A stretch of 64,000 nucleotides of DNA, taken from the IMG/VR virus record IMGVR_UViG_3300034683_000333; one strand, written 5' to 3'. The DNA comes from a virus. Position 1 is the first letter of the stretch; each line of letters begins with the position of its first letter. Positions 1 to 62,165 of this stretch are shown piece after piece. The translations under genes were made by a program, and so were the position numbers. A model generated the notes under the pieces. It made no database searches and was not told the origin of the DNA. It was given only the letters and a program-made list of their open reading frames with translations.

Positions 1-929
1 TTATCGATCATATCGGTATTCCTAAATTCACTAACATCGTGTCCCGTTGCTAGAAAAGCATCACGCCATGGAATAAAGCGATTGATTTTCATTTCTTTGA
101 TGTTTTTTCGTAAATCGTCGGTAAGAAGTCCTTTTTCACCGAGAAACCGAATAAAATCTTTCCGATATTTTTCGGGATCGCTTCCAGGCTTTACCTGAAA
201 TCGTTCCATGGCCTTCGGATTGTTCAAATCCACAAGGGGTTTTATTCCTTCGCTTCGTGTCGTTAGAACGTGTTCGACGGCCAATTTGGGAACAATATCA
301 TAGAGAATCGTTCCCTTTTGAATCCCCCCCGTTTTCATGATTTCCTTAATCGCCCCCGTAACAAGATTTCGTAATAAATTTGGATTGTTCGTCTGCTATC
401 CAGCCGTAGCACCCAAAAATTCCCAGCCCATTTCCGATGACAGCGAAGAAATCATTTCATCGGGAAACTCGTGTTCGAGTCGCAAAACAAATGGACTCAA
501 CCGTTCTGTATTTTTGACTTTGTACATCTTTTTGAATTCTTCGGTTTGAAAAAGTTGCTCCACCTTATCAAGGCGTTTCTTTCTACCTTCACCATCGACG
601 AGTGAATGTAAAGCAGATTTTCCATTGAGTTTCTTTGGAATAAGTTCCATCATGTTCTTATAAATTTCGTGTGAAACACTATCATTTTCGCCCATCAAAT
701 CAAATTCATGAAATGTGTGAAATCCGCCCGAATAGGCTTCAAGCGTATCCATCCAATCGTTGTATTGTAGTGGATAATCTTTTCCTTTTGATTGGAGTTT
801 TTTAATTCTTTTTTGAAATTCATCGAGAGTTTGTTCTTTCACGTCCATTTTCCGTGAGTGCGATCGTACAGTTTCCACGTGACCTTGTTTGTGTCGAACG
901 TGACCTTTAATATTCACGAGTTTTTTCAT
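1..929 (-). CDS. Hypothetical, probably virion-associated protein; recoded (in-frame TAG at 396-398); runs off the left edge
   Basis: Track ORF 396..929 ends at TAG, but the frame stays open to position 1 (…GATAG*QTNNPNLLRNLVTGAIKEIMK…). Basic N-terminus VKGHVRHKQGHVETVRSHSRK; ACTAATT 35 nt upstream. Confidence 0.75.
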
Positions 930-977
930 TTATTGGACTCCAGACAAGTTATTCGATATCTAATAATTAGTTTTAAA

Positions 978-1006
978 TAAAAAAACACGCCAACTAGTGG
1001 CGTGTT
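978..1006 (-). terminator. Rho-independent terminator
   Basis: Stem AACACGCCA/TGGCGTGTT (984-1006) with a U-tract on the minus strand, downstream of 1044..1415. Confidence 0.7.
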
Positions 1007-1043
1007 AGGTGAAATTTTATTGATGATCAATTATTTTAACTTG

Positions 1044-1415
1044 TTATGAGACACGATAGATGTAAAAATCGTCGTCCTCTCCTTCGACAAAATTTTCAAC
1101 GCCATCATAAGTTGCAAGAATCCTACCCCGATCTTCATAATTTGCCAAGTCTTCCTTGTAGGAATCAACATCAAAGTACGAAAGAAGAAAATTGGGAATA
1201 TGCCGATCGATCATTTCTTCAACGTAAAGATCAATCTCACGATAAAAAGCTTCGTCTGCTTCTTCATCGGTCAGTACAAGATAATCACAACCATCATGTC
1301 TGAAGGCTGGACCATAAACATGATCAATTTCGGTGAGATCTTCAACATTAACGCCAAGAAATGTTGCAAGTGCCCGAGCTTCTTCCATGTTTTCAATGTT
1401 GTTCGTGTTTTCCAT
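1044..1415 (-). CDS. Small acidic hypothetical protein (early gene)
   Basis: 123 aa, D/E-rich, GGAGG SD, TAA stop, own sigma70 promoter. Confidence 0.75.
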   Translation of the reverse strand: MENTNNIENMEEARALATFLGVNVEDLTEIDHVYGPAFRHDGCDYLVLTDEEADEAFYREIDLYVEEMIDRHIPNFLLSYFDVDSYKEDLANYEDRGRILATYDGVENFVEGEDDDFYIYRVS

Positions 1416-1468
1416 TTTTACATCCTCCTAATGAAAGAGTTTAAAAAGCAACGATCATTATTAAAGCT

Positions 1469-1497
1469 ACTATACAATATTCTTTTATGTTTGTCAA
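1469..1497 (-). promoter_or_regulatory. sigma70-type promoter
   Basis: TTGACA-17 nt-TATAGT on the minus strand upstream of 1415. Confidence 0.75.
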
Positions 1498-1516
1498 TGA
1501 AAAAACAATAAAGGCA

Positions 1517-2065
1517 TTACTTCGTTGATAACTTAACCTTTTTTTCAATTGTTTTCCATCGTGATTTAAAAGCTTCTTCTGCTGAATGTGCCTTGGTTTC
1601 TCTAATTAACCTTAGACGACTTTGTTGATAATCTTCAAGTGAACCATCAGATAATATATGAATTACCTGCTCACCGTAGGTATTTAATATCGGAGAAATC
1701 AGAAGACCCCTATGACACACCAGTGGATCACCCTCGGAACACATAATGACAACCATGTCACCACTAAATGACAATAAATTTTTTATGTTTTTAAGAAACA
1801 GTGGTTCTTTTATATATAGTTCATAGGAAATATGCCCATTGGGGTAAAGATGAGGCAATTGTGGGCGGCCACCCAATTCTGGAATATGTTTATAAAATAT
1901 TCCATATTCTTGTAAAGTTGAAGCCAACGAACGTTGATTAAAATGGGGTACCCAACGACTATACGGAGCGGATCGAACATCAAATACAGATCGAATATTA
2001 TGATATTTCAATAACTCAATAAACTTATCCAACGTATGATTTGAATGTCCGATTGTAAAAAGCAT
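1517..2065 (-). CDS. DUF488 family protein
   Basis: Motifs FTIGHS, DVRSAPYSR, ELGGRP, MCSEGDPLVCHR typical of DUF488. Confidence 0.85.
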   Translation of the reverse strand: MLFTIGHSNHTLDKFIELLKYHNIRSVFDVRSAPYSRWVPHFNQRSLASTLQEYGIFYKHIPELGGRPQLPHLYPNGHISYELYIKEPLFLKNIKNLLSFSGDMVVIMCSEGDPLVCHRGLLISPILNTYGEQVIHILSDGSLEDYQQSRLRLIRETKAHSAEEAFKSRWKTIEKKVKLSTK

Positions 2066-9401: not shown

Positions 9402-9687
9402 AAGATACGACTTTAATCAAATCGTCATTGAGCATTGTTGCCAACGCTTCAGTTTTTTCATTTGATTCAGTAATTTTAAGAAGAATGATTTTACCATGAA
9501 GAGATTGGATGTAAGAACAATTATAGGGAGTTTCGCATGTATAGACTTCATCACACATATTACAAGCTTCTTCAATGCAATACGGGCAACCTTTTTTGCT
9601 CAAATTCTTCAAAACATCTATGGCTAGCTTACCCTTTTCTGACTATACTTTTTCACAATTAGTACATTTAAACCATAAAATTTTCAC
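9391..9687 (-). CDS. Cys-rich hypothetical protein; recoded (TAG at 9643)
   Basis: GTG at 9687 overlaps the speD TGA and has an AAGGAG SD: MKILWFKCTNCEKV*SEKGKLAIDVLKNLSKKGCPYC…. Confidence 0.7.
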
Positions 9688-10094
9688 GGCTCAGCTCCTT
9701 TCTTTTTACTATTTACTGTTAATATCATTTCAATTGGCGAATAAAATTGCTTGATTGTATCAATGGCATCATTAACATCAAACTCTTTACATGTATAAAT
9801 ATCAACACTAATAAATTGCAATTCCGGCTAAGTGTGCACACTACAAGAACATACGACCGTTCCGCTTAATCCGCAATCCGTTTCCGTGGCAATGGATTCA
9901 TAGGCATTGACCACTGGAACTTGAACAATAATCGGGGGGACTAACACACGCATTCCGATCCGCTTGGTCAACTCATTCATAAATTGGTGTAAATGATCGA
10001 TCTTACCGAGAAGAGTAGCATCGACTCCATAGCAGTCCACGCAAAGTCGCTGGCGAAACGGTCCAACACGATTGTAATCGATGCCGTAACTCAT
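9684..10094 (-). CDS. speD: S-adenosylmethionine decarboxylase (class 1B) homolog; recoded (TAG at 9828); atypical self-cleavage site
   Basis: LCVDCYG…GLSGTVVCSCSVHT*PELQFISVDIYTCKEFD matches the AdoMetDC …HTWPE…VDIYTC motif only if TAG is read through; ends at TGA 9684. Confidence 0.8.
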
Positions 10095-10174
10095 TTTAGA
10101 TACTCCTTTCACGTCTCTCATCTAGTATATTTTTTGTGGTTTGTACTATTAGTATATTCTTTAATGACAAATAA

Positions 10175-10181
10175 ACTAATT
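10175..10181 (+). promoter_or_regulatory. ACTAATT candidate late-promoter motif
   Basis: 51 nt upstream of ATG 10233; the same heptamer recurs 30-71 nt upstream of other recoded operons. Confidence 0.65.
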
Positions 10182-10232
10182 AAACAACACGGAAAAAACA
10201 ATACACAAAACATTTTTTTTACCGAGGGCGAC

Positions 10233-13200
10233 ATGCTTGCATATTTTAAGGTTTACTGGGATTTAGAATATACCGGATTTCCATCGAGTTCATACAGTAA
10301 ATTGGAGAAAATTTATATTTACGAACCAATTCCAGATATCAACATGAGTATCCAGGAACTATGCGACTGGTTAAACGAGAAAAAAGAACGAACGAATACA
10401 AAAGTTGTTCTCGATAAGTATTATTATGGAATTCTTCTGGCAAACTTTTATATGTACCCATTTGAACCAGGCTACATTTACGGATTCATTTCGTTCGTAA
10501 ATCCCATCAAAAATGCCACAATTCGTGGGATTTGGACAAAATCATTGAAGATGTTTGATCATAATGTTATCAAAACAGAAATCGACAGTTAGAATAAAGA
10601 CTTTCTCGTTAAATTAGATGATTTTATTGAATATGACCATACAATACTAAGAGATCTTAATTATTCAAAATGGTATATTTTGTCAAAACAATTCAATGCT
10701 GGTGGTTCAGAAGGATATCTTAAACTAAATTATCAATACGATTTTAGCAAACCAGGAGAAAATTGGTATTACAACACAATAGCAACAAATAAATGGAACC
10801 TATTGGAACTGAACGATATTACAATATCAAACATTACTATTGAACCATTGTCAATTTATAAAGGATATCCAATCATCCCAACCAATCTTATCGACAAATC
10901 TACATGGGAAGTGTCGGATGAAACAACACGGGTGGATTTGGTTAGTTCTTCAATTGAAAATCCACAAAACAAAGTATTTTTGGGTATCGATCCACGAAAA
11001 TTATCTGAATTTAATCGTTGGTTGAGAAGTTTTTGGCTGAATAAAATTTATACTCCACCTAGTTACATAATTATTGAAGAACAAGAAACGGCTGAATTTC
11101 AATGGCTATCCGGTGTAAATGGCGTTTTATTGGATCATTTTATTGTAAAAGCAGATTTTACAACAAACGACATTTCCTTTACATCACTTTTATCAGATGA
11201 TGATTATACTCATATTCCTATTGATCTTTTAGCAAGCGATCTCTACGCAACGGATCGAACATATTCAGAACGTCACTTTACATCACCCATTGCTTTGGAT
11301 GAAGAAGCAATGAAGAGATTGCCAACATATTTTTATGATATGGGTGAATAGCAAAATGAAAAAAATCATCACTATCTATGGGAAACCAACCACGTTCTTG
11401 ATAATTGGTTTTCCAAGGAACGATCCATCGAAGACTATACGGATACGGCAGACTGGATGGTAAACCAAAACAATGCCGTATAGTCCCTCGACGTTACCAC
11501 CTTCAATTGGTTTCAAAAGGTCCATAGTCGATTTCGTCCATTCTGGTCTGATTCCTGGGCCGTAGGAGATATTTCGAGTGCTCAACCCCATTTTTAGGTG
11601 TTTTACAACCTGCGATGGATGGACCAAACCTCCCTGGATCTACTCAATTCCATCAACTGGAATCCACGAGACGTACAATGGTGGGTTGAAAACATCCATA
11701 TTCTTCCCCAAATAAAATTTCATCAGCGATGGTTCATGTGGGAAATCGACGGAACCGACATGAACATCGTCAATAAAAACATCCACACATTCGATGATTT
11801 GCATCCCGTTCAAATAATCGACAATTCCAGTATGGTTCTCCGAGATTGGAACATTGTATTCAATGCCAACGATTCGACCCAAAATTACGTTCTTGTAGAA
11901 AAAACCTGGGAATGGAATCATTCGTGGGAGTTTGAAACCACGGATTCCACGTTTGCTTCAAAACCTAAACAAACTCTCCTCTTAAACCTCAATTTTTACG
12001 ACGACAACACCACACACCTTTTCGATGCAACTCACCTAGTTTCCGATGTAACATTCTCATTTGGATTTGGAGATTCTTCAAATCTTGATTCCACATTTTA
12101 TGAAAATCTAATTACGCAAAAACTTTATGAACAGGATAGCTCCGTTTTCTTCGCTTGGCAGTTCCTTTCGTCAATGTACTTAAATTTTGATGAACCGTTT
12201 AGTGTAAACGAAATTTATTCTAACGATAATTCCACATTCATTTTTCCAGTATCCGTTCCACATATGGATCTAACTCAAATAAACTTTCCTGATACAACAA
12301 TGGATCACCCAACGCTTGGGTTGATTCTTTACAATCTACACGGAATTGAGTTTAAAACGGAAGTAGAACAATTTTTGTTGTGTATCAATTTGATGCACCC
12401 GATTACAAGTGGTTATGTATCCAACCAAAATGGAACATAGATAAGTCATAACAAGTAGCCGTGGGTCATACAATTCAACAATCTTGATCGTCCAGTCTAT
12501 AACGGGCGACGATATGACATGCTCTATCAGAAATCCCTGACAACCAACAAGCCAACAAGTCGTGATGTTACATACATAAACTGGGATATGACGGACATCA
12601 ACGATCCACAACCAAAACCAGTTGTTGACTAGACATTTGATAAGTGGCTCATTGTTCCGTATTCTGATGGAAAATATGACGCATTGGCTGTTTATGAAGA
12701 TTATCCAAGTGATGTGACGAACTACTATAGTATGTCATTGTACGAGGCGTCTCAAGGATGGAGATTTTCAATTATTGTTCTTTACTCTACCGAAGATTCT
12801 TCAGTTGCGTTATCAAATAGTGGTTTTGTTGATGATGCATATAAAAAAGTCACGATTTCGAAAATCAACAACCCCAATTAGAAAATCCGATTTGTCGCTC
12901 CCAACATGTAGATCGTGAGAGATCCTGGTAAGCAAGAATATTACGTCGATCCTACAAGAACCATCGGTAAAATAACATTTTTTGAAAACACGCAAATTCT
13001 TTGCGATGATATCCACGATTACTTCAATGAAATTGGAGTATCACCCGTTTTCATAAGCGATGGTACTACATTTGATATACCAACCCCAAATTATGCATTT
13101 GGAAAAAAATTTACTGATTTTACAGGAAAACTTTATAACATCGACCAAACGACACAAGTAATAAAAGAATTATCTGGTAAAAGTATCGCCAATAAGCTTT

Positions 13201-14789
13201 TTAACTAGAGTTCATTGGATTCAACAAGCCTATGGAAGCTTGAAGCGATTACTGCCCCGATGAATAACCTCGCTATTCGAATGTACCACCGTTAGTTCGC
13301 TTGGGCTTCACAATAGGATGCATTTAACTACCCACAACAACATTTGAGACAGGCAAATGCTTTCGTCGGTATGTTAAGTGATTCACACGTTTATCTATCT
13401 TAGTATCCAATGAATAGAAATTACATTGTACGTGGCAATGGAGTTCGTAATCCATTGATTTATCCTAATACAGGAGAAAAAAATCCAAGCGCTTATTATT
13501 ATGACTATGACTATTATTATTCATTACCAATGACATTTGCTTATTATGATAAAATAGAAGATACATTAACAACAAAATCAAATAATACAATGGAATCTTG
13601 GATTTCTTGGATTCTACTCTTATATGGAAAGAGAATAGTTAAATTCAACGAAAAATACACTGATAAAACTAGTTATGTAATATATGAAAATGGTTCTATT
13701 GGTTCACCACTTCAAAAAGTCGATGTAACAACTAACATTCCAATAAAATAGCACGATAGTTCAATATCATATCCAATGATTTTGTCAACAGATAATTTTG
13801 ATACATCAACGACAATTTATCAATCAAAAAATATTATACACGGAGCACCATTTATTGATTTAACGGCTGTACTTTCAAATATAAACTACGGCGAATCGTT
13901 TAGTGCTAACCAATATAATGGATCACTTTTCATTAACGAAAATGTACTCCGATTTGATGCAACATATGAACAATTGCTAACTCCTACAAACATCGTGGGA
14001 TTAAGTAGCGGAAACTACATTTTTGCGGCATTGTGGTCGAATGTTACTTCAACACAAAATGCTCATACACCAAACTACTTTTTACAAATAATGCATCAAA
14101 ACACTATCTCCGGTGCTTATACCCTTTAGGATGTAGCTCATCCAAAGACAGAACTTCTCTCACACGAAAATCCAAGTGTAGACATGCTTGAAAACTCGAA
14201 TACAGGATATTTCAGTAAGTAGTATGCTATGTTTCGTTTGAATGCACAATCATCTGATAGATTGTTAACATCAGAATATTTTGATGATTTAAATTACTGG
14301 GTATATGATATTGGATATTGGGGTAGTGATATAGAGACTTATAATAATAATGAAATTATAGAAAAAGCAACAACTTTGCCACCTGGAAAATGTATGCTAA
14401 TTCAAAAAGATCTACCAAATATTCTTTTTGATGATGAAAATGATCTTGATGTATAGTATTATGGAGTTATCGACTCTTCAGGAAATGTATATTGTGCCAC
14501 AACAAACAATTATGGTGATGCATATTAGGCAAGCACAATTGACTTAAATGAATTTATTGCTCGTGGCGTTCAAGATAATATTGATAGAAATGATCCAAAT
14601 CTTGACTCAGACGATGATTAGAGGATGAAATGGTTCTACAGCATTGTCGATGAAACTGAAGAGTATGTACAGAATTTTATAAATATTGTAAAAAATTAGA
14701 ATATTCCACCAAAAACCGGAAACTTATATATGATTCTTCCTTATTCCGAGTATCTAAGTAAGAAAATGATAAAATATTTGATTGAGTAA
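10233..14789 (+). CDS. Large (1518 aa) putative virion structural protein; recoded (about 20 in-frame TAG)
   Basis: Track ORFs 9993, 10680, 11598, 12684, 12915, 13410, 13776 and 14229 share one frame and are separated only by TAG. GAGG SD + ATG 10233; TAA 14787-14789, then a terminator. The structural role is inferred from size and composition. Confidence 0.85.
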
Positions 14790-14842: not shown

Positions 14843-15931
14843 TTAGATTAGATCTGATTCGTCATTGAATCGATCATAAACAACTGAATCCATGATAACT
14901 TCATTTGTATACTTTAGCGGTTTCAACCAAGGATTTGTTTGTTCAGTAACAACTGATGTAAGTCCACTTAAGTTAGTTTCACTTGAAAAAAGACCATGTT
15001 TTTCCAATAAAATTTTTCCAATCGACCACTGAAAAAGATCTTGATTTCCTTCCAATTGAACAACCAATTCTTTAAAAATATTATACTTATGAGAAGAAAA
15101 AACAACTTGTGAACCAGCATTTCCCCTTTTAAATGCCGTTGGAACATGAAGCATACGGTAGGTGGTTCCAGATCGTGTGATCACGGTTGAATTGTTTGCA
15201 AAAACCACCCAGTCGTGACCAACGAATGCACCCTGAAGAAACGATTGCAAATTACTACTCGATGGTTCAACGGTGAATGCGGTTTCGGAATTCTCAAGAA
15301 GGGATTTAGTAGCTTCAAAATCCCACGAATAGAATCCAACATTCGATACATCGAGATAAAATGTCCACTGCATCCGATCCAAAATTTGATAAGTTTGAAA
15401 GACAGTCCATGGTTCACCCACGGAAATTAAAGTTGCTTCTAGAGACGCCAGAGTGGAATCATCACCCAAGGAAATTGATTGGAGCTTGGTCGTCCTTGTG
15501 CCGTCCCACCCAGCAAGAACCCAATTATCTGTTGTCTATGATAGATGGAGCGGGGTTTTTGATTTGACGAACGAGACCGTCTTGGAAGAATCGGTGCTAT
15601 CCAGAAAAAACCTACATTCGTCGTATTCAGAAATGAGAAACGACAAGATTTGACTGTTGTTTATCTGAAACGATGCAAAGAAAAGATTTTTATCTGTATC
15701 GTTCCACAACTTTAAGAGTTCCATTCGATCAACGATTAATGTTTCTGGGCATTTAAATGATTTGTACGCACCAGAAAGTGCTTCAGCAGTTATATAAAGT
15801 TGATTATTGTTTACCAAAATACAATTACAATATAAATCTCCAAATGGATAAACTTCACACAAGTGTGTTACGTCAGAATAAAAATGTTCATCAATCTATT
15901 GCGTTAAAAAGTTGTGCCAAAGGAATTTCAT
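14843..15931 (-). CDS. Hypothetical (362 aa) putative structural protein; recoded (2 TAG)
   Basis: GGAGG SD + ATG 15931 (MKFLWHNFLTQ*IDEHF…); joins track ORFs 15536 and 14843; TAA stop. Confidence 0.8.
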
Positions 15932-15946: not shown

Positions 15947-18256
15947 TTATATTGTCGCATCCTTACTTGCTATAATTTCCTGTAATTCACGATTACCAAT
16001 TACAAATCGAAGAGCAATATCTTCCGATGTTAGCTTCTTAAAATGTAACTTCAATTGATCCAAATTTTTTAATAGCCGTTCTAAATACAAATTTTTCTCA
16101 TCTACTGATTTATCAATAACAATGTAAAGAAGTTTCAAAATATCTGCATCCGTAAGGTTTTCACTTGATACGAGTTCAAAACCAAGACCATATTCATATA
16201 ACAAGTTTACTGGTATGCTAACCGTTTTTCCGCCATGAAAATCAAATCGAATCAACCGTTGTGTTAATTGATTATCCATCTGATGAAGCTTAAATTCGAG
16301 TTTCCATTGGTTCCTCGTATCGTCCCGATGAATCATGATTTTTGATAACTCTAGAACATCTCCATCCATTGCCGTTTTAAGAAAAAGAAGACCGTCATAA
16401 TCCACATAGAATGTGTTGGGTTGATCGGCATGAATCGGGACAATCTGAAAATTGGTTTTATCAGCAATGATATTCAATTGTCTGTTCCCATTTTGATTTC
16501 TTAATGCGAAAAGGTAAGAAGGAACTTTATTTTTCCACGAAATCTTTGCAAGTGAAGTATTGTCCAACGGGGTTGACACAAAACCCGTGTCTTCCTAGAG
16601 GCCGTAACATTGCTCACTGGAATCCAAGACCATTTTGGGCTGGGCACGTGACAAAAGACTTTGATCTTCAATCTCCGAAAGATTTTGTCCCGATGACCAT
16701 GTTTCCATCGTTACCTGAGCGCTCTTAATAGAATCAACAAAAACGGGATGAAATACGTAAGATTGTATATCAATAAATCCAAGTTCTTTCCATATGTCCA
16801 TAATATACGTAATGGCAGATGAATCTCTCTAGCTTGTTGTCTACTGAGAGTTTGTGTAATGATAAGGTACTGTATTTAATGCAATTAAAGTCTCGAAGCT
16901 ATAATAAGATTTATAGTTCTAAATGGTACCATCAGTGCTTGTATAATCAGTTTCATTTAAAATATTTTCAAGTGATTTTGTAATATAAGCCGATGTAACA
17001 AGTAATTTAATACTTTCTTCATCGTTTGTTGGATAAAGTGTATCTGGTAAAAGGAGCGACACTGGTTTTTGGCTTCTAATAAAATCCAAAGATAATTCAA
17101 CATTTAACATATCATCAAGTTGACCGGGTGTTGCATCTGGAAAAATGGAATATAACATGTTTGAGATATCCATCATGTCGAATGTGTAATACAAAATAGT
17201 GTCTTTCTAATATGAAATTCCAACTTTATCCCCATCACGTGTAAAATTCATAACCTATCTCGGACTTATGGTATGCTAAGTATATGGAAAATCACTCCGT
17301 TTTACAAAGCAACATTCATAATCTTTAGATGATAATGCCCTACTATTGCTCATCTTACAAATTGGAAATAACCACGAAAGAGCATTGGATGTAATGTCAT
17401 AAACGTCCTTAAAGTATGTATCAACAACTGTTGTAAATTTAAAATAATCATCAAAATCGTAATTATATAAATATTCAATTGCTAAGTTGGTGTGGTAGTC
17501 CAATTTCTCAGTACCGTCAACAGCAAACCAGCTAACAACTTTCATTTTATCTGAATCTGGTTCAAGATAACAATCAAAAAGAGATTGACCTAGATATTTC
17601 ATATCACCAAAATACAAGCTGTAAATTGGGTAAAGAGCTAAGTTTGGTTTCCAATCATCCTGCTTTCCAATTGCGCCTAGAAAAACGACAATATGATCAT
17701 TTACGGTACCGGTGTTTTTAATTGCATATAACAATTCATGAGGAAGCGCTTCCTTAACTTCTAAAACTTCATGTGTTTCAATGTTAAGCTTTACAGCAAT
17801 TGGCTTAAGTGAGTCAAATATGTATTTAGGTATCACACTTCCTTTACTTGCTTTATGAATGAGCTTTTTATCTATAATTAACTAATTATAATACAACTAG
17901 TAAGTGTCTTCAGTCACATATTTAAGCATCTATTTTGATTTATCATTAAACAATGAAATCGTCTATGCTGGCTCTTGTTCATAATTCAATAAAAGTTTAG
18001 CATACCAGTCTAAATAGACGGCACCAGGAGAACAAAAAACGTCAGTTAGCTTGTTGACAAACACACCATTGGAATATAAAATGAAGTCGTCGTTTTCAAA
18101 GAGTTTAAGCGTTTTTGTGAAGTCCCACACATCAACATTATCCATGACTGGGGTAGATTCATAAAATTCATTCCATTTAGATAATGACGTGGGAAGTTCG
18201 AAGTTTATATAGGACTATTTCGGTAAAAGCGTTCTAAAATAAAACGGAGAAAGCAT
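15947..18256 (-). CDS. Hypothetical (769 aa) putative structural protein; recoded (about 12 TAG)
   Basis: AAGGAG SD + ATG 18256; joins track ORFs 17963, 17276, 16919, 16595 and 15947; TAA stop; ACTAATT at 18291-18297. Confidence 0.85.
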
Positions 18257-18580: not shown

Positions 18581-20866
18581 TTAGACCAACGTAAATTTAA
18601 AAAACCTTCTCTATTGTCCGTAATGTTCTCTTATGTTACCATAACTAACTATATACCAGTCTGTTGTGAAATTAAGGGTACCTGCGTATGGTCTTAAATC
18701 AATTAGAAAGGGTCTTGATACATTGTTAAAATCGATATGTTGCCAACCACCGTCATTCCACCAAATTTCAAGATTTAGAGTGCTAACGGGATAAAAGAAT
18801 AACATCAGAAAATCGAACGCCTCTCCTGGATTGAAATAAGAAACAAGTGCACCTTTTCCGGGGTTCTGCAAATTACCATAGGTAATATCTTTGATATTCC
18901 ACCGTGAATTACTTACAGTTTCGATGATTGTTGTATCACTACACGCATATACAGTTCCATATTCCAATAGTTTAATTTCATCAGCAAAATTTGGTAGAAC
19001 CTGTCGTATCTACGGAGTTGCATTAGTATACATATCCATATAAGTCTAATCAACTAATGGAAAACCATCAAAACCATTATAGTAACCGCCTGTAAACTTA
19101 GTATACGTACCACCGAACACAACAAACTTTTTGTCGTCTACCTGAACAACACGCTGTCCATAAGCGGGACGAAAGTCAAATTGATACTGTGAAAGTTTAT
19201 TATTCATGACATCTAATCTGCTAATGGTATTAGAAAGTATCGACTTCGTGAAAAAATCATTATAAGATGGTTGAATCCCTTCTTTAACTTGTGCAACGGC
19301 TTTCCAAGCGGTCCAACCATCAAACGTACCGTCGGCGGAATTGTAACAACGTGGAATAATGGCGTAAGCAGGATCAATACAAATTGCTATCCTTGACATT
19401 GGACTATACCAAGGATCGCCATTTTCGTAATTCGCTATATCAACGACTGTTTGATCACTCCATTCATACTCCTTAATCGTCCAAGCCAATTCACCACTAC
19501 TAACCTGATCCGTGAAGTAAATGATATACACATCAGAAGAGGATATTGAGTTAGTCTCCGTTGCCAGAAAAGAGCGACCACCAAAATTATTATAATTATA
19601 TAAAGTTCCATCCTATGTCATAACTGACATGCCAGTATATGTCGAATAACCATAGGCATATGCTGTTTTTCCTTCATCATAATAAGTTCCAGATGAATTA
19701 TAGTTGCAAAATGGACCACCACCAAAATAAACATACCCAGCACCATTTTCTACATTAAAATCATGTGTATAACATTTAGAGACTAAGGCCCCATATTTAC
19801 CGGTTGTATAATCTGTCATGCTAGATACTACAGTACGATCTGTTGATTCATTCAACGTTAACTGAAGCTGGTGGTGCATGATGGAAGTTCCGTCGGCAGG
19901 ATTCAAACCACCATTTATATAAATTTTAATATCGGCGGTTTTATATAGTGATAATATTGGCCCAATGGATGGGTATGGATTAGTCCAATCAGTAGAATTA
20001 TCACTGTTCTTGACAATTGTGTAACTAGAAGTATCAAGAGAATATGCATATAAAAATTGATTTACTGTATTATCATCTTGATACCAGCCACCAGCCATAT
20101 ATAAACTATTGTTATATGGTACCTAAATGATATCATGCTTTGCAAGTGGAATACCAGTGTTAATTATTGTATAAGAACTTGGATTATTTTTTACATCTGG
20201 AAAAACAATTAGTTCATCACTTATATTTCCACTGGCGTCATATCCACCATGTACATACATTCTCGTTCCATCATAACATGCGGCGTGCCACTTGTTAATC
20301 ACAACATCCATCGGGGCGGAATAACAACCATAACATTTTGTATCAAAATAAATATTACCATCCTAATCTTCCTGTTTTATCGTCTTGAAGGTCATAAGTG
20401 TTGCATTTGGACTATCCGAGTGTTCAACGTAAACAGAACTAGTTACAGGATTCTTATAGTCATCGGTATCAGTATAATGATACATCTCATCTTCTTGAAC
20501 AGTTAGATTCTGTACTTTAGGACTTACATCGAAAACCCACACATCAGTTGAATCCAAGCTTACACACAAAATCCACGTTCGATTATTTGGGATAAATTTA
20601 GTGGAACTATATATATATCCACCAGTAACAATAAATGATTTGACTTTATGGTTTAAGTAGGTTTGTGTTCCTCCAATTTCGTGTACATGTTGCATACATA
20701 TATTATCCACACCAAAAAGAGTTGAAAAATCAAACAAAACGACTTCGTTGGTATTTGAATTAAACACATAAAGGTTTGTATTTACCTAACTTGGGTCTGT
20801 TGAATGTAGTCCAACGTCTTTTCCATAAGTTGTGTCAACCTTAAGCTAAGCTCTATCGTATGCCAT
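18581..20866 (-). CDS. Kelch-like beta-propeller protein (761 aa); recoded (8 TAG)
   Basis: GGAG SD + ATG 20866; joins track ORFs 20363, 20123, 19613, 19046 and 18611. Repeated hhhGG motifs (IVTGGY, YVHGGY, YMAGGW, YINGGL, YFGGGP, VVFGGT); TAA 18581. Confidence 0.8.
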
Positions 20867-20920: not shown

Positions 20921-21532
20921 TCATAAACTCGAAACCATGGCTTTCCAGGCTCCCAAACCATCCTCTTTTACCCACACACCCTTGGTGGCATCAAAAATCC
21001 AAAGATCGCTAAACTGAATTTCATTTCCATTATCATCAAGACCCCACCCACCAAAAATTCCAAACCCACTGGGCGTTGGAAACCCACGTGCAAATACTCT
21101 AGGTTCCGGTTGTTCGCCACCAGCAATTTCAACAGTACTGTCATACTAAGACACACTAGATTCTTCATAATCTCCCCAATAATAAGTTCCACTAACGCTC
21201 TAGTAAATGATACGATTTGAAAGCCCTCCATTATCGACATCGAATCCCCCAAAGGCATAACCTTCAAATAAATATGATTGATAACTTAAATTCGTGCCCC
21301 ATATTGTATTGTTTCTTTTTACAACAATCGTTGTATGTAATAAATCACAAATATTTTTTGACGAGGGATTTCTGACTACACATTTTGTAAAGAATGATGG
21401 TGTGTTTTCTATATTTGGACCAACAATATTCTTTGAAAGTGTATCAAAATATATATACAAATTTTTTGAAAATAGTTTTGGATATGCAGGTACCAGGAAT
21501 GCACCCTTTTGAACTGGGATAATAATTGGCAT
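20921..21532 (-). CDS. Kelch-like protein (203 aa); recoded (2 TAG)
   Basis: GGAGG SD; after TAG 21200 it reads PEPRVFARG…GIFGGWG…FSDLWIFDATKGVW, a textbook Kelch blade; TGA 20921. Confidence 0.75.
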
Positions 21533-21553: not shown

Positions 21554-22759
21554 TTAAATTATTTGTTCGTCTTTAGAAGACATCTCAACAAATGAAACTA
21601 CCTTAATACCTTCAGATGTGAAAATGCTTAGTGGTAAACCAAAATCAACAAATATATAGCGACTCTCAGCCTCACTTTCCTCGACTGGTTGTACATTATT
21701 ACTAACAATAGTTAGAATACTATTTAGTGTTGGAAAATAAAGTCCTGGTAAATAATTATAAATTGTAAAATCAACTTTTGTGCTAAATGTTCCAACAAAA
21801 CCGTTTGTAAGATCATCACATTCAACACGAAAATGATAATCAACATCCTCTTTCATAGTAAAGGGATGTGCATATTGTCCAGTTGTAGAGTGGGTGTTTG
21901 AAAATAACGTCGTTCCATCAGAATCCACAAGTGAAACATTCAACTCGTGACTTGTTGTAACATCATAAGTAAGGACTTTATTAACAAAAAGGTGTGGTTC
22001 CTGTGAAGATAGGGTGTATTCCAGGACAACCGCACCGGATGGTGTATTGTCTGTATCAAAATTATAGGAAAGATCATAATGTTGCGTATCGGTTAGTTGA
22101 AATTGTGGATGATGAATGAAAAATAACGAAGAATCTTGGTATTGCTAAGATGTAATATCTGGTAATTTAAAAGAGTCAATAGAATAAGTACTATAAATGG
22201 TAGTGTTGTCACTTGTGTTTCGCTAAAATATAAGTAGCAGGTCATTTTCAAGATTAGAATTAATCGTTGATTCTGTATTGTCTCTAATATAAAACTTTCG
22301 TACTAAGTTAGAAGTTGTAGAATAATCGTAAGCAATTATATTGTAAAAGTTATCATATGTGGAATCAACTTTACCTGTTTTTATTGAATCATTATCCTCA
22401 TCACCACTGACTAACAAAACGAAAATTTGAGAAGAGTCTGTCCACGAAGCAACATTTTCGTGTTCTTGTAGTTCAAAGATTTCCTATTCGTCGAAATTAT
22501 AGAGATTTATGAGATTTGTGACATCCAACACACTCAATTTTTCAATGATAGCTTCGACATAAGTGACATCGGAAACGTTTCCGTGACCCGAAATGTTGTT
22601 TAGAACCCAAATCATAACTTGATCATTAATGTAATTATCTACTCTGATTTCATGTGTATCATCACTTTTAGTTACAAAACCAAAATCTTTCAGCGATGGT
22701 GTATAAGATTTGTATCCACGTGTAAGTGCTACATTTGTTATATCGAGTTTTACAGCCAT
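21554..22759 (-). CDS. Hypothetical (401 aa) putative structural protein; recoded (3 TAG)
   Basis: AAGGA SD + ATG 22759; joins track ORFs 22484, 22223 and 21554; TAA stop. Confidence 0.8.
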
Positions 22760-30347: not shown

Positions 30348-30357
30348 ACTAATTAGT
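30348..30357. promoter_or_regulatory. Palindromic ACTAATTAGT: bidirectional candidate late promoter
   Basis: 37 nt from ATG 30313 (minus) and 38 nt from ATG 30393 (plus). Confidence 0.75.
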
Positions 30358-30392
30358 TGATATGCAAAACTACAACTCGGAGCAAAGACAAC

Positions 30393-35756: not shown

Positions 35757-35783
35757 GGGGGGCAAATAGCCCCCCATCTTTTT
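35757..35783. terminator. Terminator between convergent genes
   Basis: Stem GGGGGGC/GCCCCCC with a T-run. Confidence 0.7.
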
Positions 35784-40287: not shown

Positions 40288-41199
40288 TCATTTTACGATT
40301 CTATTTTTAAAGTTTATGTAATCAATATTATAGAAAATCTTCCTAAAAGAAGCCTTATTGTTTGTGATTTTTCTTAAATACACTTCGCCCGTTGCAACAT
40401 CTTTCATAACCAAGTAAAAATCTACAAACTTTGAAAATTGATCCATACTCGAAAAATTTTGCGAAAGAATTTGTTGTTCGAGCGCATCGGCATTTCTCAA
40501 AGGAGATGACGTAACGGTGAATCGAACCTCAAAAAAGGGAATGTACTTTGTTTGAGAACGAATATCAGGATCATCAATTATAAATGCAAAATGGGTGGAA
40601 TCCTTAAACGAACGGGACTATTCAAAAAAGGAAGAATCAACTGGTGTTTCAAAGTCGTCGTGTTCAAAGAAATCGTCAAAATTGTATTTAGAAAGTATGA
40701 ATGGCGGAATTTCGTTATAGGCCGTTTCGTCAAAGAAAAATGACGAGTTGTAGAAACGTTTTTCTGTTACAAGCTTATCTCCAAAGTAAAAATAGTATAT
40801 AACTTCAATGGGAAATCTAAAAACAGATTTGATTTCATCTCCTGCATCCAACAACTGGGATTTGATCACCGGAACATGCATAATTTTTGAAAACGACGTA
40901 TTAAACTTTGGATAAAATGCCAACTATCGAAACCAACTATCGAGATCTTCTTCATAATTTAGAATATTTAGAACACTTGTCTCGTCATAGTTCAATAACA
41001 GGTCTTCGTTATCAATGGGGATTAAGTTAATCTTCATCGAAAGCTTTTCGCTTGTATCGATTAAAGTGGACAACGAGGCAATATCTATAAGCGCATTGTT
41101 ATATGAAAATTTTGAATCAGATTTTTTACTTAAAGGAACAATTACACCAAGACGTTCATTATAATTATATATGATTTCTCGTAATTTTGCATTGTCCAT
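40288..41199 (-). CDS. Hypothetical (303 aa); recoded (2 TAG)
   Basis: AAGGAG SD + ATG 41199; joins track ORFs 40924, 40618 and 40288; ACTAATT at 41244-41250. Confidence 0.8.
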
Positions 41200-50539: not shown

Positions 50540-51745
50540 TTATTCCCCCTTTTTTGGTTTTTTTACTTTCTTTAAGAATTTGTTTATAACACCCGAAAAA
50601 ATACTTTGAGCACGCTTTTTAAACTACTTTGTCTTATCTGAATCAACTTCAAGTGATTCCCTGCGAACGACCGTTGACAATTGCGGTTCACGAACGAGCT
50701 TTCCAAAGCGGTACGTATCGGAAAGCCTGGCATTGATGTGCTTATTTGTAAAATATCGAAAAACATTTAAAATTCCAGCCAATGGTTTTGTATTTTGGGA
50801 AAGAATCGTTTGAACCATCACACGATCATTATCCGATAGATGAGCAAACGGAATATACAACAAGGTTTTTAAGATCTTTTGAACCTTTTCATCCTGTTTG
50901 GAAAACCACTCGTTCCAAAGATCGTTCATAACCCCATCATCGTCTCTTCCCACGGTGGCCTGACGAAACACATCGTGGGCACCCAAAGGAGACGAGATGA
51001 CCGTATTGTAGGTTCCCATGGGGGTCCAGGTTTTTGTGGCAAGGGTTCCAGCCGACACCTGCTTGGCACGCTCGGAAAGATCAGTGTTTACGACCACAAA
51101 ATCCAAGCGTCTTCCCAATGAATCGCTAGTCTTGAAGGCTCTTACCACACGAAGGGCTTCACGTTCTGGAACACCCTTTCCACGGATCTTTCCAATCACC
51201 ACGGCCTCACGCAATGATCGGAACATGCGACGGCGGTTGTTGTCATTAAAAATATCCGATAATTGCCTCGAATATTTCTTCATGCGCTTTTGAATCGAGT
51301 TTTCAATTTTTACCTACTCTTTTTCACCAATGGACGAACGATAATTTCCGATACCACCCGCCTCACGAATTCCCTTCATGAGTTTTGCAACAAAGGCACC
51401 GTCCGGTTTATTGAATCCAACATTGTTTTTGTAGATCGTTCTCATGGCAAGCTGTTCGGCATCGGTTTGAAATTCCTATAGAAACAACATTTGCTCAAAT
51501 GCATAATCTTTATCTTTTTCAATCTTTCTTCGGATATCTCTCCACGATCTTCTTGAATTGAGTAAATCTTTGTTAGAAAATTCTCCAATACCATGGGCAA
51601 CCAATTCACTTTCTTTCTAGAACTTTTTATATTCCTATCGGGAAACAACCTTACCTTTTCGTACATAATTTATACGAGTTTTAGGGTATTTCCCCTTCCT
51701 TCTACCACGAACATCCAATGCTTTCGTAAATTTAATATCATTCAT
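50540..51745 (-). CDS. Hypothetical (401 aa) protein with basic N-terminus; recoded (5 TAG)
   Basis: ATG 51745 overlaps the upstream TGA; TAGs at 51635, 51617, 51476, 51314 and 50624; TAA 50540. Confidence 0.8.
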
Positions 51746-54663: not shown

Positions 54664-56085
54664 TTACAATTTTACATTATTTACAGTGAAATGAATCGTC
54701 ATGTTCGTTGCACCACCGTAAGAAGGATCTTTAGCATAATATGAAAATTGGGGGAGAAGATTTTGAGAACCCATCACATCTGATTCAAAACAAAAAATAA
54801 ATACAATCCGATTGATTTCCGACATAATCTGAAGAACTTCCAATCCACTGAATGTATGATCTAAATTCCAAATAACAGTTTTATCATTCCAGACGATTTC
54901 ACGTTGTTCGTTAAACGAAATCCTCGATACCACATCGGACAAAAGATCGAACGCAACGTTTCTCTACTTAAGGTTGGGAGAAACATGTTCCGTGCCCGAC
55001 ACCAATTTGAGAACCGATGAAAAAATTCCAATTTGGGCATTTTCCAACACCCGATGATGAACCAGTGCCACGGCCAGGCGTAACCACTGAGAAACCGTCG
55101 TCTCGTCAAAGCCGTAATGAAACGTCAAAGCGGACCACAACCAATCTCCGTAGGGAATGGGATACCCACTCAACCACTCTTCGGATCTGCTGGAAATCGT
55201 GTTGAAGACCACGAGATTTCGCCGCCCCAAAATCTGAAAGGCCATGGTTGGAACCACTACGTGGGAAGCGGGAAGAAATGAATTGCTATCAAATGTAAAA
55301 TCCCATTTTTCCAAGCCAGGAACAAACCCCGATAAACCCCTCCATTGATAGGCCAAAACATCCGTTTGGTCACCAACCGTTCTATCCAGGGTAGTAGCAT
55401 CATGGGAAATCACCCGACGAACCAGGGGGACATTCATCGTGAAATCACCCAACAATCCCGTCACATCCAACTAGATCGTGGAATCGGGTGAAAGCCAAAA
55501 GATGGTGTCATCAACGGCCTGAAAAACAAACGTGAAAAGATCCGTCCACACGGGAGCGTGGAACGTAAAATCGGATGAAGTCACATCCTCGGCAAACGAA
55601 GTAAACATATTCTTGATAATTTGTGGATTATATCGGTAATTAAAATATTTACTATCATTAAAACAGCAAAGAACACGAACCCTGTCGATATACTTAAAAA
55701 ACTTTTCCTGTAACTGATTTGTTGAACGAATTGTATCTGTCTGAGATTTAAGTTCAATCTGTCTACGAAAGCGTTTTTTACTAAATGGTATATAAATCAA
55801 AAATTCGTTGAGCTTTTCCCTTAGTTCATCAACCGATGCTGTTAAAAGTTCAGTAACATCAGAATAATATGTATTAAATCTAATCGGCTGACTCTGAATA
55901 AGAGCTTCTTCAACAGGTCGATCATCAAAAAAGACGGTCGTCCCATCGAGAACAACCGTCTCAAACAAGCGATGGCGTGAGAGTATATCCTGAAAACAAC
56001 GATCCACTAAATGTTTCCAGTTATTTTGAATCAACGACAAGTCCTAATAGATTTGTTTCTTCGATTTGAAATTTTGTAAAATCAT
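54664..56085 (-). CDS. Hypothetical (473 aa); recoded (3 TAG)
   Basis: ATG 56085; joins track ORFs 55471, 54964 and 54664; ACTAATT at 56124-56130. Confidence 0.8.
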
Positions 56086-56134
56086 GTAAATATCCCCATT
56101 TTTTATGTTTTTACATATCAAAAAATTAGTGCTT

Positions 56135-56797
56135 TTATTTTGCTACACTTGATGGAGTGGGAAGGGGATAAAGACCAAACGTAATATAAACCAATGAATC
56201 ATTCAGCGACTTAGCAACAGCCTGGATGAATACATCTTCGTTGTCACCCCCCACATGGAAATTCACAATGCGATTCTCACTCCCATAAATCCTTGCAATT
56301 TCTGGATGCACCTTCGTGGGATGAGCGACGTAACGAGTCAGAAACTCGATAGCCCGAACGAGACTTAGAAAATGCACCGTTGCATTGGAATACGTTGCCA
56401 CGGCGAAATTAAGCTTTCTGGCTGGTGTGTCCAATGGGGGTTCGTTGTAAAAAGCGAGTGGAAAACTCGCAACAATTTTATCATTGGAATTCCCAACCAC
56501 TTGAACGATTTTCTGCTTATTTTCATAACCCAAATAGAATGCATCTTCTTCCTGAATCGATCGAATAAACCTCTCGCTATAAAGCGTACTCGCCGGTGGA
56601 ATCACAATGCTGGAATTATTTAGAAACCCGACACTTCCACGATAAAACGATTTGTGCCATTCCAGCTTCAAAAACAAATCTTCACCGGGATAAACGTAAC
56701 GAAAATGATCATCCACAAGACCAATGGCGCAATGACACACACCAAAGGTCATGTGGGCATCCATCACGATTTTAGGCACATGAAATAAATATCCCAT
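56135..56797 (-). CDS. Hypothetical protein
   Basis: 220 aa, directly downstream of the nuclease gene. Confidence 0.65.
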   Translation of the reverse strand: MGYLFHVPKIVMDAHMTFGVCHCAIGLVDDHFRYVYPGEDLFLKLEWHKSFYRGSVGFLNNSSIVIPPASTLYSERFIRSIQEEDAFYLGYENKQKIVQVVGNSNDKIVASFPLAFYNEPPLDTPARKLNFAVATYSNATVHFLSLVRAIEFLTRYVAHPTKVHPEIARIYGSENRIVNFHVGGDNEDVFIQAVAKSLNDSLVYITFGLYPLPTPSSVAK

Positions 56798-58072: not shown

Positions 58073-58137
58073 AGTTTAATGTAAATGCTTGTCATACAAA
58101 AAAATCAGAATGGGGGATTATTGTCCCCCACTCAGCT

Positions 58138-58716: not shown

Positions 58717-58745
58717 AGGCACCTCCTGTTTTATGGTTCGCACAA

Positions 58746-59423: not shown

Positions 59424-59534
59424 ACCGATAGCTAACGTGAGGCGGCTTCTTCCCAGCCGCCTCAAAACAAAAACAATCCAAGACAAAAAAAAGTACACCC
59501 GAAAAGAAAAACACAAAAAAAGATCGGGAGAAGG

Positions 59535-59762
59535 TTAGACAAATTCTCCCGATCTCTTTTTACAATATTCAAAAAACGTGCATTCCGAATCTTCGCACGA
59601 ATTCCAATGAAGAAAACAAACCCTACCTTTTTGAATCCTTACATACTAAACGAAACAATCTAAGCACAGACCACTAGTGTACGATTCATTATCTAACAAC
59701 TCTAGATTTTCTTCTTCGTTAAACTAAAACTTACCGCATCGGATACAGTGATTTAGCAACAA
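59535..59762 (-). CDS. Hidden 75-aa Cys-rich (zinc-binding) protein; recoded (2 TAG)
   Basis: GAGG SD + TTG: LLNHCIRCGKF*FNEEE…GLCLDCFV*YVRIQKGRVCFLHWNSCEDSECTFFEYCKKRSGEFV*; absent from the track. Confidence 0.65.
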
Positions 59763-59803
59763 TTAAACCTCGTCTAATTTAAGTTTCACACGAACAGGAA
59801 CAA

Positions 59804-60091
59804 TCATTGGATTTTTCCTAATTTTTTCCATTTTTCGACACTGTAGCTTTCCAGATCGAGCATGGCTTCGTCTTTTGTTCTGAAAAATCCACGCAAGAGA
59901 CGCTTTGTATAGGTGTTAAATAGACCCCATCCACTCAATTCAGTTTCGGGAGTCGGACTAGGCTCATCAAACACCTGGTGAGGAAGCTCCAACTCCTCTT
60001 CCGTCCAGTACCCTCTGAATGCATCCGCATCCGTTGTGTTGAAACTCAAACGAGATTCATCGTAACCACAAGAATGCGTTTCAGTTTTCAC
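59804..60091 (-). CDS. Hypothetical protein
   Basis: Track ORF; start uncertain. Confidence 0.5.
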   Translation of the reverse strand: MKTETHSCGYDESRLSFNTTDADAFRGYWTEEELELPHQVFDEPSPTPETELSGWGLFNTYTKRLLRGFFRTKDEAMLDLESYSVEKWKKLGKIQ

Positions 60092-60236
60092 ATTTCGATT
60101 CCCAATACCAGAAGACCTTTAGAAACCAACAACCCTCATAATCTCCTCCCACGTTGATGATACAAATAACAAAGAAACACCCATACAATAACACTTATTT
60201 CAAAAAATCAACCATTAAACACAAGATGAAACACGA

Positions 60237-62027
60237 TTACGCAATTTGTAACTCACGCAACACACGATCCACCTCCAAAACCATTTTCCGCACCGTTTGT
60301 GAAGATCGGTGAGAAAAGTTAACCATCCAGTGCGGCTTGGTGTTATAAAGCAAGGTTCGTTCCCTTTCCAATGATCGATCAATGATTTTTTCCTATTCCC
60401 CCAGATTATCCGTATAGACATGATTCCTTTGGTCTTCCCAATCCTTTGCAAACTTTGATAAGGCTTCTTTTACCTTTGTTTTCTTATCATCACTTAATTT
60501 TGGAAATTTTTCTGCAATATCAGTAATTTTCCTGTAAATATCAGAAAACTTTTTAACAGGTAGAGTTTGCTACACATTGACCATATCGACATCTGGAACA
60601 GTACCCTCAAACTTATCTGGATGTTGTGAAATAAATGATCCAATCAATCCTTTATGATATGCATTATCTCCATAAATATTCATATTTTCATAGTTCCTGA
60701 ATCCCATAGTTTCTGGATGCTATGTTAAAGATACCCTTGCATCCTTTTCACCATCTTTATTTGTCGTATACATAACAAAATCGTTTGTTTTATGGGACAA
60801 TGCACTTCCAACAACATTTATGTTATCTATAGTTATATTAACTTCCATATTTCCAGTCTCTATATCCTTCTGTAACAATGACTGACAGGAAGGAACATGT
60901 TTATCTGGTGACATAGTTAATATATTCAAAGGATTTTTGCTAACATATATCTTATTCGATGTTCCTGCACCACTTTTTTCGTTAAATCGTTGTCCAAAAT
61001 ATCCGGCCAGTGATTTCAGTTCTTTGTTCAGTTCTTCAAACTTAGAAATCTTCGTACCACTATTAAGAAGTAAGGTTAGATGGGTACCAACAGAAGCCGC
61101 ATCCACCTTCTTCATATGTGAACGCAATTGGCGGATTTCATCCTTCGACGCATCGGGAAGATCCGATTCAAGTCGGGAAAACTCTTTCATTAGTTCTTTT
61201 CGCATAGCCTCACCGTCGCCAACATAGATACCACCTAAATCTTCCCGATAAAATTTGTCAAATTTTTGCCGATCAAATGACAAAAAAACATCGGGGGAAA
61301 TTCCCTCATTCCAGTTGGCAATATTGCTGGAAATGATTGTTTGGGCAACGCCCTTGGAAAATTTGTTGGGATCGTCTCGGAAGGCGGAAATAAGCTGGTC
61401 AAAAAGTCCGTCGGATGAAACAAACGAAGCTTGTCCATGGGTAAGCCCCAATTCTGTAACCGTGCTCAAAAAATTCTGAATACGCTCAACGAGCTTTTCG
61501 TTTTCTCTAAGAGCATGTAATTGGGTATCAGCACCATCATAATCAAACGAAAACGTAAATGGATCTTCCCGTGTGGTCTTAACCCCAAGCGCCTTTCGAA
61601 ACTCGGCCTCAAGCCCGTCCACAAATTGAATATTTCGGTCCACGTTCCCTTTTTTCAATATTTCGCTAAAAAACTGGCGTTTGTCAAACCTTAAAGTTTC
61701 CACACCGAAAAATTCACGATCCCAGCCGTCGAAAATCTCCTGGAATATGCCCTCTCGACTCAGGGTTTCCCGATCCACTCCATGACCGCTTCCGAATAGA
61801 TCCATGACAGCACTTTCCAGATCGGAATCTGTGATGGAATCCTTTAATCTTTCTCCATCAAAAAATTTCTCATGAAGTTCCTTATGGTTTTGTTTCTATT
61901 TTCCAACGGGCGTCAATTCAGTATCTACTCGTTTTTCACCTTCTCTTGTGTAACCCCGAACCTGACGCCCTTTACGTAGGTGGGGTTTTACTAGGATTTG
62001 TTGTTTAACTTTAGGTCCGATCGCCAC
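60237..62027 (-). CDS. Hypothetical (596 aa) protein with basic N-terminus; recoded (4 TAG)
   Basis: GGAG SD + GTG 62027 (AIGPKVKQQILVKPHLRKGRQVRGYTR…); contains track ORF 60720..61805; TAA 60237; ACTAATT at 62058-62064. Confidence 0.8.
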
Positions 62028-62088
62028 ATTAAATCTCCATATTCAATGTTTTTATGAAATTAGTGGCAATCATAAAATGGAGATGAGA

Positions 62089-62165
62089 TGGACCCCGTGG
62101 CAGGATTCGAACCCGCACCCAACGGATTTAGAGTCCGTCGCTCTAACCAATTGAGCTACACGGGG
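62089..62165 (-). tRNA. tRNA with CUA anticodon (amber-decoding), 77 nt, CCA encoded
   Basis: CCCCGTG-TA-GCTC AATTGGTTA GAGC-G-ACGGA CT CTA AA TCCGT-TGGGT-GCGGG TTCGAAT CCTGC-CACGGGG-T-CCA; all four stems pair; anticodon at 62129-62131. Confidence 0.95.

Follow-up and report, generated by a model that had tools for sequence, protein, structure and literature searches.

The window examined here, a 64,000-nucleotide stretch of DNA from the virus record IMGVR_UViG_3300034683_000333 of IMG/VR, carries numerous TAG codons in frame within its genes. From comparisons with related phages we conclude, with considerable confidence, that UAG is a tryptophan (Trp, W) codon in this phage lineage, that it is synonymous with UGG, and that TAA and TGA are the only stop codons. 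The window has a G+C content of 35% and is phage-like, and the phage genome, of ~195 kb, comes from subsurface metagenomes. An earlier note on this DNA had proposed reassignment of TAG to an aromatic amino acid, most likely Trp, and not to glutamine (Gln, Q). The sequence comparisons described below establish that TAG is read through, that alignment columns holding TAG evolve as Trp columns, that a transfer RNA (tRNA) with anticodon CUA is present, and that the trait reaches distant relatives.

Read-through of TAG is evident from the arrangement of open reading frames (ORFs). Under translation table 11 the longest ORF encodes 731 amino acids (aa), and with TAG taken as a sense codon there are ORFs of 2511, 1598, 1498, 860, 769 and 761 aa. 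ORFs of at least 100 aa that do not overlap cover 65.6% of the window under table 11 and 85.7% with TAG as sense, compared with 71.9% for TGA as sense and 75.3% for TAA as sense. TAA and TGA still terminate, and reading either of them as sense adds little coverage. All 40 complete ORFs in the read-through set end at TAA (28) or TGA (12), in agreement with the description in the earlier note of genes of up to 2511 aa that close only at these two codons. That note had estimated ~115 TAGs in ~22 genes; its call of recoding stands, and our recount gives 122 in-frame TAGs across ~26 ORFs, a few short members of which are doubtful. Genes B, C, D, E, F, G, I, J and O (coordinates below) each have a Shine-Dalgarno (SD)-like motif ahead of the read-through start, as had been noticed earlier for TAG-containing genes, but this does not extend to the listed start of gene A.

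The TAG codons are not sequencing errors, because the same ones recur in JGI contigs and in separate assemblies of four sequencing runs, which belong to one subsurface study; the phage reaches a contig depth of up to ~196x in the subsurface samples. Only 4 single-nucleotide polymorphisms in 20 kb separate the contigs of the four runs, and the one that was inspected by hand lies outside a TAG codon. Alignments with relatives at 40-70% identity also cross the TAGs uninterrupted, which upholds the read-through originally proposed. If TAG is Trp, it makes up ~30% of the Trp codons of the window. The bias of TAG towards AT-rich blocks that had been described is real, if slight (local G+C of 0.351 around TAG and 0.376 around TGG codons; Mann-Whitney p=1e-5), and the base 3′ of TAG is distributed much as the base 3′ of TGG.

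The amino acid for which TAG stands can be read from sister-phage contigs obtained from other JGI samples (L004, L005 and L013). Genes H to K are 99-100% identical between the window and L004/L005. The alleles of genes A to G in L005 and L013 are only 39-69% identical to those of the window:

Gene A, 9993..14789, plus strand: 1598 aa as listed, 20 in-frame TAGs; 57% identical allele in L013, with W in 15 of 27 TAG pairs
Gene B, 14843..15931, minus strand: 362 aa, 2 TAGs; 69% identical allele in L013
Gene C, 15947..18256, minus strand: 769 aa, 12 TAGs; 63% identical allele in L013, with TAG pairs W 6 and Y 3
Gene D, 18581..20866, minus strand: Kelch-repeat protein, 761 aa, 8 TAGs; 41% identical allele in L013
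Gene E, 20921..21532, minus strand: small Kelch-like protein, 203 aa, 2 TAGs
Gene F, 21554..22759, minus strand: 401 aa, 3 TAGs; 43% identical allele in L005, in which the three TAGs of the window pair with W, W and F
Gene G, 22778..30313, minus strand: giant structural protein, 2511 aa, 27 TAGs; full-length 59% identical allele in L005, with TAG pairs W 20, Y 6 and Q 0

The true start of gene A may lie further in, since there is no SD motif at 9993 and the alignment with its relative begins only at residue 79. We call gene C portal-like because its homologue comes after the terminase gene in relatives, which suggests this function for the protein. Gene D matches Pfam Kelch families below the curated cut-off, in line with the Kelch-like domains assigned earlier to this protein. 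These seven consecutive virion genes form a divergent mosaic segment of ~20 kb (9993-30313) whose flanks are 99-100% identical to L005/L013, and from its sequence the block resembles a host-range module, containing Kelch-repeat proteins, that has been swapped or evolves fast.

Since the window and its sisters both carry in-frame TAGs, mostly at different sites, the pair provides a natural test of what the codon means. We aligned the seven genes with their alleles in L005/L013 (6477 aligned columns, 58% identity) and counted pairs in both directions. Among 110 pairs of a TAG with a sense codon the partner is W in 51, tyrosine (Tyr, Y) in 13, phenylalanine (Phe, F) in 11, S in 5, and G and L in 4 each, followed by V, R and K (3 each) and M, Q, H, T and A (2 each). 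W leads among the partners in each gene that has at least five sites. When the likelihood of each of the 20 amino acids was computed with a substitution matrix derived from the same alignments, Trp was best, with Tyr 110, Phe 165 and Gln 251 nats worse. The columns that are Trp-equivalent in both genomes comprise 87 TGG/TGG, 51 TAG/TGG and 12 TAG/TAG pairs. The last figure, against 9.4 expected under independent codon choice, is the expected behaviour if TAG and TGG act as two synonymous codons at saturation.

The giant protein of gene G had already given the same picture in fragments that belong to the sister contigs. When 1200 residues of the 2511-aa product were used in an exhaustive search, these fragments came up at 33-70% identity, and the TAGs of the window pair in them with W (7), Y (3) and F (1) but never with Q. 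Individual motifs that had been put forward as anchors for an aromatic residue fared unevenly. The TAG in the Kelch-like motif KNT-TAG-ISEL does pair with W in the relative, but that in RFS-TAG-GG pairs ambiguously with G. An anchor to standard-code proteins lies in a gene with a Pfam match:

AdoMetDC-like gene, 9684..10121, minus strand: 145 aa, 1 TAG; Pfam PF02675, E=6e-15

Its TAG (residue 98) falls on the W of the motif HTWPE, as had been predicted from HT-TAG-PE; this column is W in 5 of 5 matched AdoMetDC sequences of solved structures in the PDB, and the gene in L013 has a TAG at the identical site.

The same signal recurs in distant lineages. The syntenic Logan contigs L001 and L002, both full of in-frame TAGs, encode a 25% identical homologue of the portal-like protein. 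These two contigs are 99% identical and differ at five TAG sites, four of which are TGG in the other contig and one of which is a Tyr codon. A third lineage (L025 and L026, from ENA assemblies) is 34-80% identical to L001. In the comparison of L001 with L025, 69 TAG-versus-sense pairs include W 26, Y 14, F 5 and Q 1, and W is the more likely residue, with a lead of 40 nats on Y and of 148 on Q. Neither Gln nor Tyr dominates the TAG columns of the sisters or of the distant lineages; W leads in both comparisons, as the earlier note had anticipated. Because the L001/L002 and L025 lineages repeat the signal, the Trp code is, on this comparative evidence, a property of a broad phage clade and not of one genome.

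That these are phages is supported by a T4 gp17-like terminase in synteny with the portal-like gene in relatives, and the window has no plastid genes. Direct alignment of the window with L001 and L025 (23-26% identity) is too divergent to be of use, and the partners of TAG look random. Alignment of the L001 terminase and SLT protein with PDB sequences places TAG on H and R in poorly conserved columns, which is uninformative. Further relatives did not emerge from scans of IMG/VR with the portal-like protein and alignment A1 or from tblastn against phage records; a metagenome scan returned a single fragment at 23% identity, and scans of GTDB genomes found neither the tRNA with anticodon CUA (tRNA-CUA) nor gene I.

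A tRNA suited to reading the reassigned codon is encoded near the end of the window:

62089..62165, minus strand: tRNA with anticodon CUA (reads UAG), identified by ARAGORN; the sole tRNA found in the window

The gene, which had been described correctly as a tRNA-CUA with a C1:G72 pair, scores 72.8 bits with Rfam RF00005 and folds into a canonical cloverleaf. It has the acceptor stem CCCCGUG/CACGGGG, discriminator U73, the anticodon loop CUCUAAA, a variable loop of 5 nucleotides and an encoded CCA. The label tRNA-Pyl that ARAGORN assigns automatically was rejected, given this standard cloverleaf and the presence of lysine (K) at only 3 of the 110 TAG sites. Among annotated phage tRNAs, those that score highest against it are mycobacteriophage tRNA-Trp genes (83.6% over positions 4-70, 69 bits), the next matches being tRNAs for Lys and Met (62-63 bits). 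Its anticodon loop is a single C-to-U transition from the tRNA-Trp loop CUCCAAA. These resemblances suggest that the tRNA-CUA is of Trp ancestry. An unrelated 175-kb phage in IMG/VR (L017, 9009-9085, minus strand) carries a tRNA-CUA with an identical anticodon arm and U73, but with G1:C72. In that phage and in another unrelated one with the same anticodon arm in its tRNA-CUA (L024), searches found neither a PF00579 synthetase nor a homologue of the portal-like protein.

The acceptor end bears on how this tRNA could be charged. Bacterial Trp identity elements are G73 and A1:U72, with G73 used by both the bacterial tryptophanyl-tRNA synthetase (TrpRS) and glutaminyl-tRNA synthetase (GlnRS), and the amidotransferase GatCAB uses U1:A72. 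Because the C1:G72/U73 end of the phage tRNA has neither G73 nor U1:A72, it would be shielded from the usual route of Gln charging, and because it differs from the elements of TrpRS, GlnRS and GatCAB alike, it would need a dedicated or matching synthetase. In published work, 28 of 29 phage tRNA-CUA inserted Gln in an Escherichia coli extract. Profile scans of the ORFs of the window revealed no TrpRS and no release-factor gene.

Several other explanations deserve consideration. Under ordinary code 15 TAG would be Gln, as in crAss-like, Lak and other recoded phages. This is the commonly described phage reassignment of TAG, the proteins of these phages stand in databases with Q at TAG, and the Gln content of the proteins is low (3.0%) with Trp already at 1.6% before TAG is counted. 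Nevertheless, we regard it as practically untenable: Q is the partner in just 2 of the 110 sister pairs and 1 of the 69 distant ones, its likelihood lies 251 and 148 nats below that of W, the TAG of the AdoMetDC-like gene occupies an invariant W of solved structures, and an acceptor end with C1:G72 and U73 should, by textbook identity rules, work against both GlnRS and GatCAB. The earlier note had left open that TAG is Tyr; the decoder would then be an archaeal-type C1:G72 tRNA-Tyr that has turned into a suppressor. C1:G72 is indeed the pair that confers Tyr identity in archaea and eukaryotes, the loop CUCUAAA differs from CUGUAAA by one change, Y ranks second among the TAG partners (13/110 and 14/69), and pairing of a phage tRNA-CUA with a tyrosyl-tRNA synthetase has been reported in the literature. 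Yet Y-to-W exchange amounts to 3% in the same alignments in which W makes up 46% of TAG partners, the discriminator is U73 and not A73, and recent TAG polymorphisms involve TGG in 4 of 5 cases and a Tyr codon in 1 of 5. With likelihoods 110 and 40 nats worse than those for Trp, we reject Tyr as extremely improbable.

Adenosine-to-inosine RNA editing, by which UAG would become UIG and be read as UGG with the tRNA-CUA merely incidental, would give the same comparative signature, since TAG would then be equivalent to TGG. The amber/W site of hepatitis delta virus, where UAG is edited in this way, is a precedent. We consider editing to be very improbable here, as it would have to act on more than 120 sites without a common sequence context and would leave the matching tRNA-CUA in the genome to be accounted for; there is no deaminase among the scanned ORFs of the window, and we know of no bacterial or phage editing system at such a scale. 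Quite unlikely, too, is a dual meaning in which UAG is partly Trp and partly a stop or another residue, depending on infection time or context. A W-equivalent partner is found for 55% of TAG columns versus 79% of TGG columns, five TAGs are followed 3-20 codons later by a stop (the genes for IscB and an IS200 TnpA account for two), and no release-factor gene is seen in the window, all of which would accord with such ambiguity. However, essential virion genes contain up to 27 TAGs each, and no full-length product would be left if termination at every one of them were even modest. Therefore, a dual meaning would refine the assignment of UAG to Trp, as a difference between early and late infection, and would not replace it.

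A number of observations do weigh against UAG being a Trp codon. The lower proportion of W or TAG partners at TAG columns (55% versus 79%) means that TAG may sit at less constrained sites or that decoding may not be uniform. The five TAGs found 3-20 codons ahead of a TAA or TGA stop may still serve as stops themselves, and in the two mobile-element genes (IscB and IS200 TnpA) the near-terminal TAG is probably the original stop. Some proteins would contain Trp at 3-4%, which is high. As for the tRNA-CUA, its U73, C1:G72 and CUA depart from the bacterial tRNA-Trp set, so that only the loop and body are Trp-like, and the body is also 79-80% similar to tRNA-Lys, tRNA-Arg and tRNA-Met genes; its sequence alone is no proof of Trp identity. 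More generally, the evidence for Trp is entirely comparative.

If UAG is read as Trp, the codon is most likely decoded by the phage's own tRNA(CUA) at 62089-62165, with both the Trp charging of this tRNA and a dedicated charging enzyme being presumed. The portal-like, Kelch and giant structural genes are rich in TAG. The codon is missing from the genes for an SNF2 helicase, DUF488, an M78 peptidase-domain protein, a DprA/SLOG-like protein, an RlaP nucleotidyltransferase, a metallophosphatase and a SIS-domain protein, and from IS genes. The TAG-free genes would be early genes whose products are made before the code switch, with TAG concentrated in virion and structural genes, and the absence of TAG from the helicase gene and its like would agree with the early/late model put forward for recoded phages elsewhere. 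We are evenly divided over a bolder proposal, namely that UAG is Trp throughout a whole clade of large environmental phages whose portal-like proteins are only ~25% identical, and that this code is forced on standard-code hosts by an orthogonal C1:G72/U73 tRNA(CUA) together with a putative divergent, CUA-reading phage TrpRS. If true, phages would have a third independent way of taking over a stop codon, and the tRNA and its enzyme would make a ready-made orthogonal Trp amber-suppressor pair. A natural pair that charges Trp in this way would be of interest to genetic code expansion.

The assignment of UAG to Trp would represent a new codon meaning within the established practice of stop-codon recoding by phages, for which the assignments described so far are TAG to Gln and TGA to Trp or glycine. 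The literature searched contains no TAG-to-Trp code for a phage, a virus or a prokaryote, in keeping with the lack of any phage precedent remarked upon in the earlier note. The sole TAG-to-Trp case in that literature is from plant organelles, which we take to be the Balanophoraceae plastid code, NCBI table 32. In table 32, the Balanophoraceae plastid code, TAG is Trp, and the table is the same as that proposed here, with TAA and TGA as stops. There is a further likeness in the AT-rich genome (35% G+C here) and in the preference of TAG for AT-richer surroundings. Unlike the phage, the plant plastid has no separate host with a code of its own to overcome and no division into early and late genes, and the two systems are evolutionarily unrelated.

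Among phages, Borges et al. (10.1101/2021.08.26.457843) describe only TAG-to-Gln and TGA-to-Trp where phage and host codes differ, and explain both by the ready acceptance of suppressor tRNAs by the host GlnRS and TrpRS. Al-Shayeb et al. left the meaning of TAG unresolved. The TAG-to-Gln phages of code 15 (crAss-like, Lak, Phassvirus and others; 10.1101/2021.08.26.457843; PMC9523058; PMC10607447) resemble the phage studied here in their phage-borne tRNA-CUA, in many TAGs, concentrated in structural or presumably late genes, in low coding density under table 11, and in TAG-free genes of what would be the replication or early type. They differ in the amino acid, which is Trp and not Gln here, and in the Gln-like acceptor end of their tRNA, as opposed to C1:G72 with U73. 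In the TGA-to-Trp phages of code 4, the ‘code change’ operon of Jade comprises a tRNA with anticodon UCA, TrpRS and release factor RF1, and the phage TrpRS is the proposed charging enzyme (10.1101/2021.08.26.457843). A stop codon has become Trp in both cases, but the codon here is UAG and not UGA, TGA is a working stop (12 of 40 ORFs), and the window, unlike the Jade operon, shows neither TrpRS nor a release factor.

The host-synthetase explanation does not suit a UAG-to-Trp code, because a CUA anticodon normally drives Gln charging. The E. coli suppressor su+7 (supU), a tRNA-Trp with anticodon CUA, is charged mainly with Gln by GlnRS. The phage tRNA has the same kind of change, its loop CUCUAAA being one C-to-U step from CUCCAAA, but unlike su+7 its outcome appears to be Trp, and its C1:G72/U73 acceptor end is not that of E. 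coli tRNA-Trp. A UAG-to-Trp code would therefore be a new solution to the identity problem, probably by way of a dedicated synthetase. There is also a practical consequence. The database proteins for P0001, L001, L002 and L025 are either code-11 fragments (JGI) or carry Q at TAG (Logan, ENA), and we consider them wrong because the pipelines use code 11, which breaks the genes into fragments, or code 15, which places Gln at more than 100 Trp sites. Table 32 would give correct translations of these genomes.

The remaining TAG-containing genes of the window are as follows:

Gene H, 30357..32939, plus strand: 860 aa, 6 TAGs; 99.5% identical in L004/L005, with the TAGs unchanged
Gene I, 35782..40278, minus strand: 1498 aa, 10 TAGs
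Gene J, 40288..41199, minus strand: 303 aa, 2 TAGs
Two genes, 41958-42734 (258 aa) and 41542-41958 (138 aa), minus strand: 2 TAGs each
Gene L, 50540..51745, minus strand: 401 aa, 5 TAGs
Gene M, 52790-53692, minus strand: 300 aa, 2 TAGs
Small membrane-like ORF, 53689-54018, minus strand: 2 TAGs
Gene N, 54664..56202, minus strand: 512 aa, 4 TAGs
Gene O, 60237..62027, minus strand: 596 aa, 4 TAGs; directly downstream of the tRNA gene on the minus strand

Gene M had been taken for a GNAT protein and used as an anchor for an aromatic residue, but it matches no Pfam family at E<=0.1 and the assignment is not confirmed. Pfam and PHROGs match almost none of the TAG-rich genes, and for this reason inference of codon meaning from profiles was not usable. 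No usable PDB match was obtained for genes D, N and O, and all-against-all BLAST within the window found no paralogue pair that spans a TAG.

Mobile elements are also present. A complete IscB-type element lies at 3269-4848 on the minus strand and consists of a HEARO/omega RNA (Rfam RF02033, 163 bits; 4628-4848) directly upstream of a protein with RRXRR and HNH domains (3299-4606; Pfam E=1e-70). The end of this gene under the standard code is TAG, and read-through would add 10 residues. An IS200/IS605-type insertion of 2.5 kb (32984-35495) is absent from the otherwise 99.7% identical L004 and L005, and encodes a TnpB-like protein (33347-34417) and two Y1 transposases (34420-34899 and 34953-35369). 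In the second of these the Pfam domain stops at residue 129 and the TAG is at residue 133. A second IS605 OrfB/TnpB element (62192-63777, minus strand), with a gene of 413 aa at 62252-63493, ends 27 nucleotides upstream of the tRNA-CUA gene and may affect its transcription. This element is mobile, since the same element has different flanks in the short Logan contigs L010 and L011.

Finally, the adjacent genes for the metallophosphatase-like protein (423 aa) and the SIS-domain protein (201 aa), at 56801-58743 on the minus strand, contain neither TGG nor TAG in 624 residues. At the TGG frequency of the window, the chance of such a Trp-free pair is ~5e-5.

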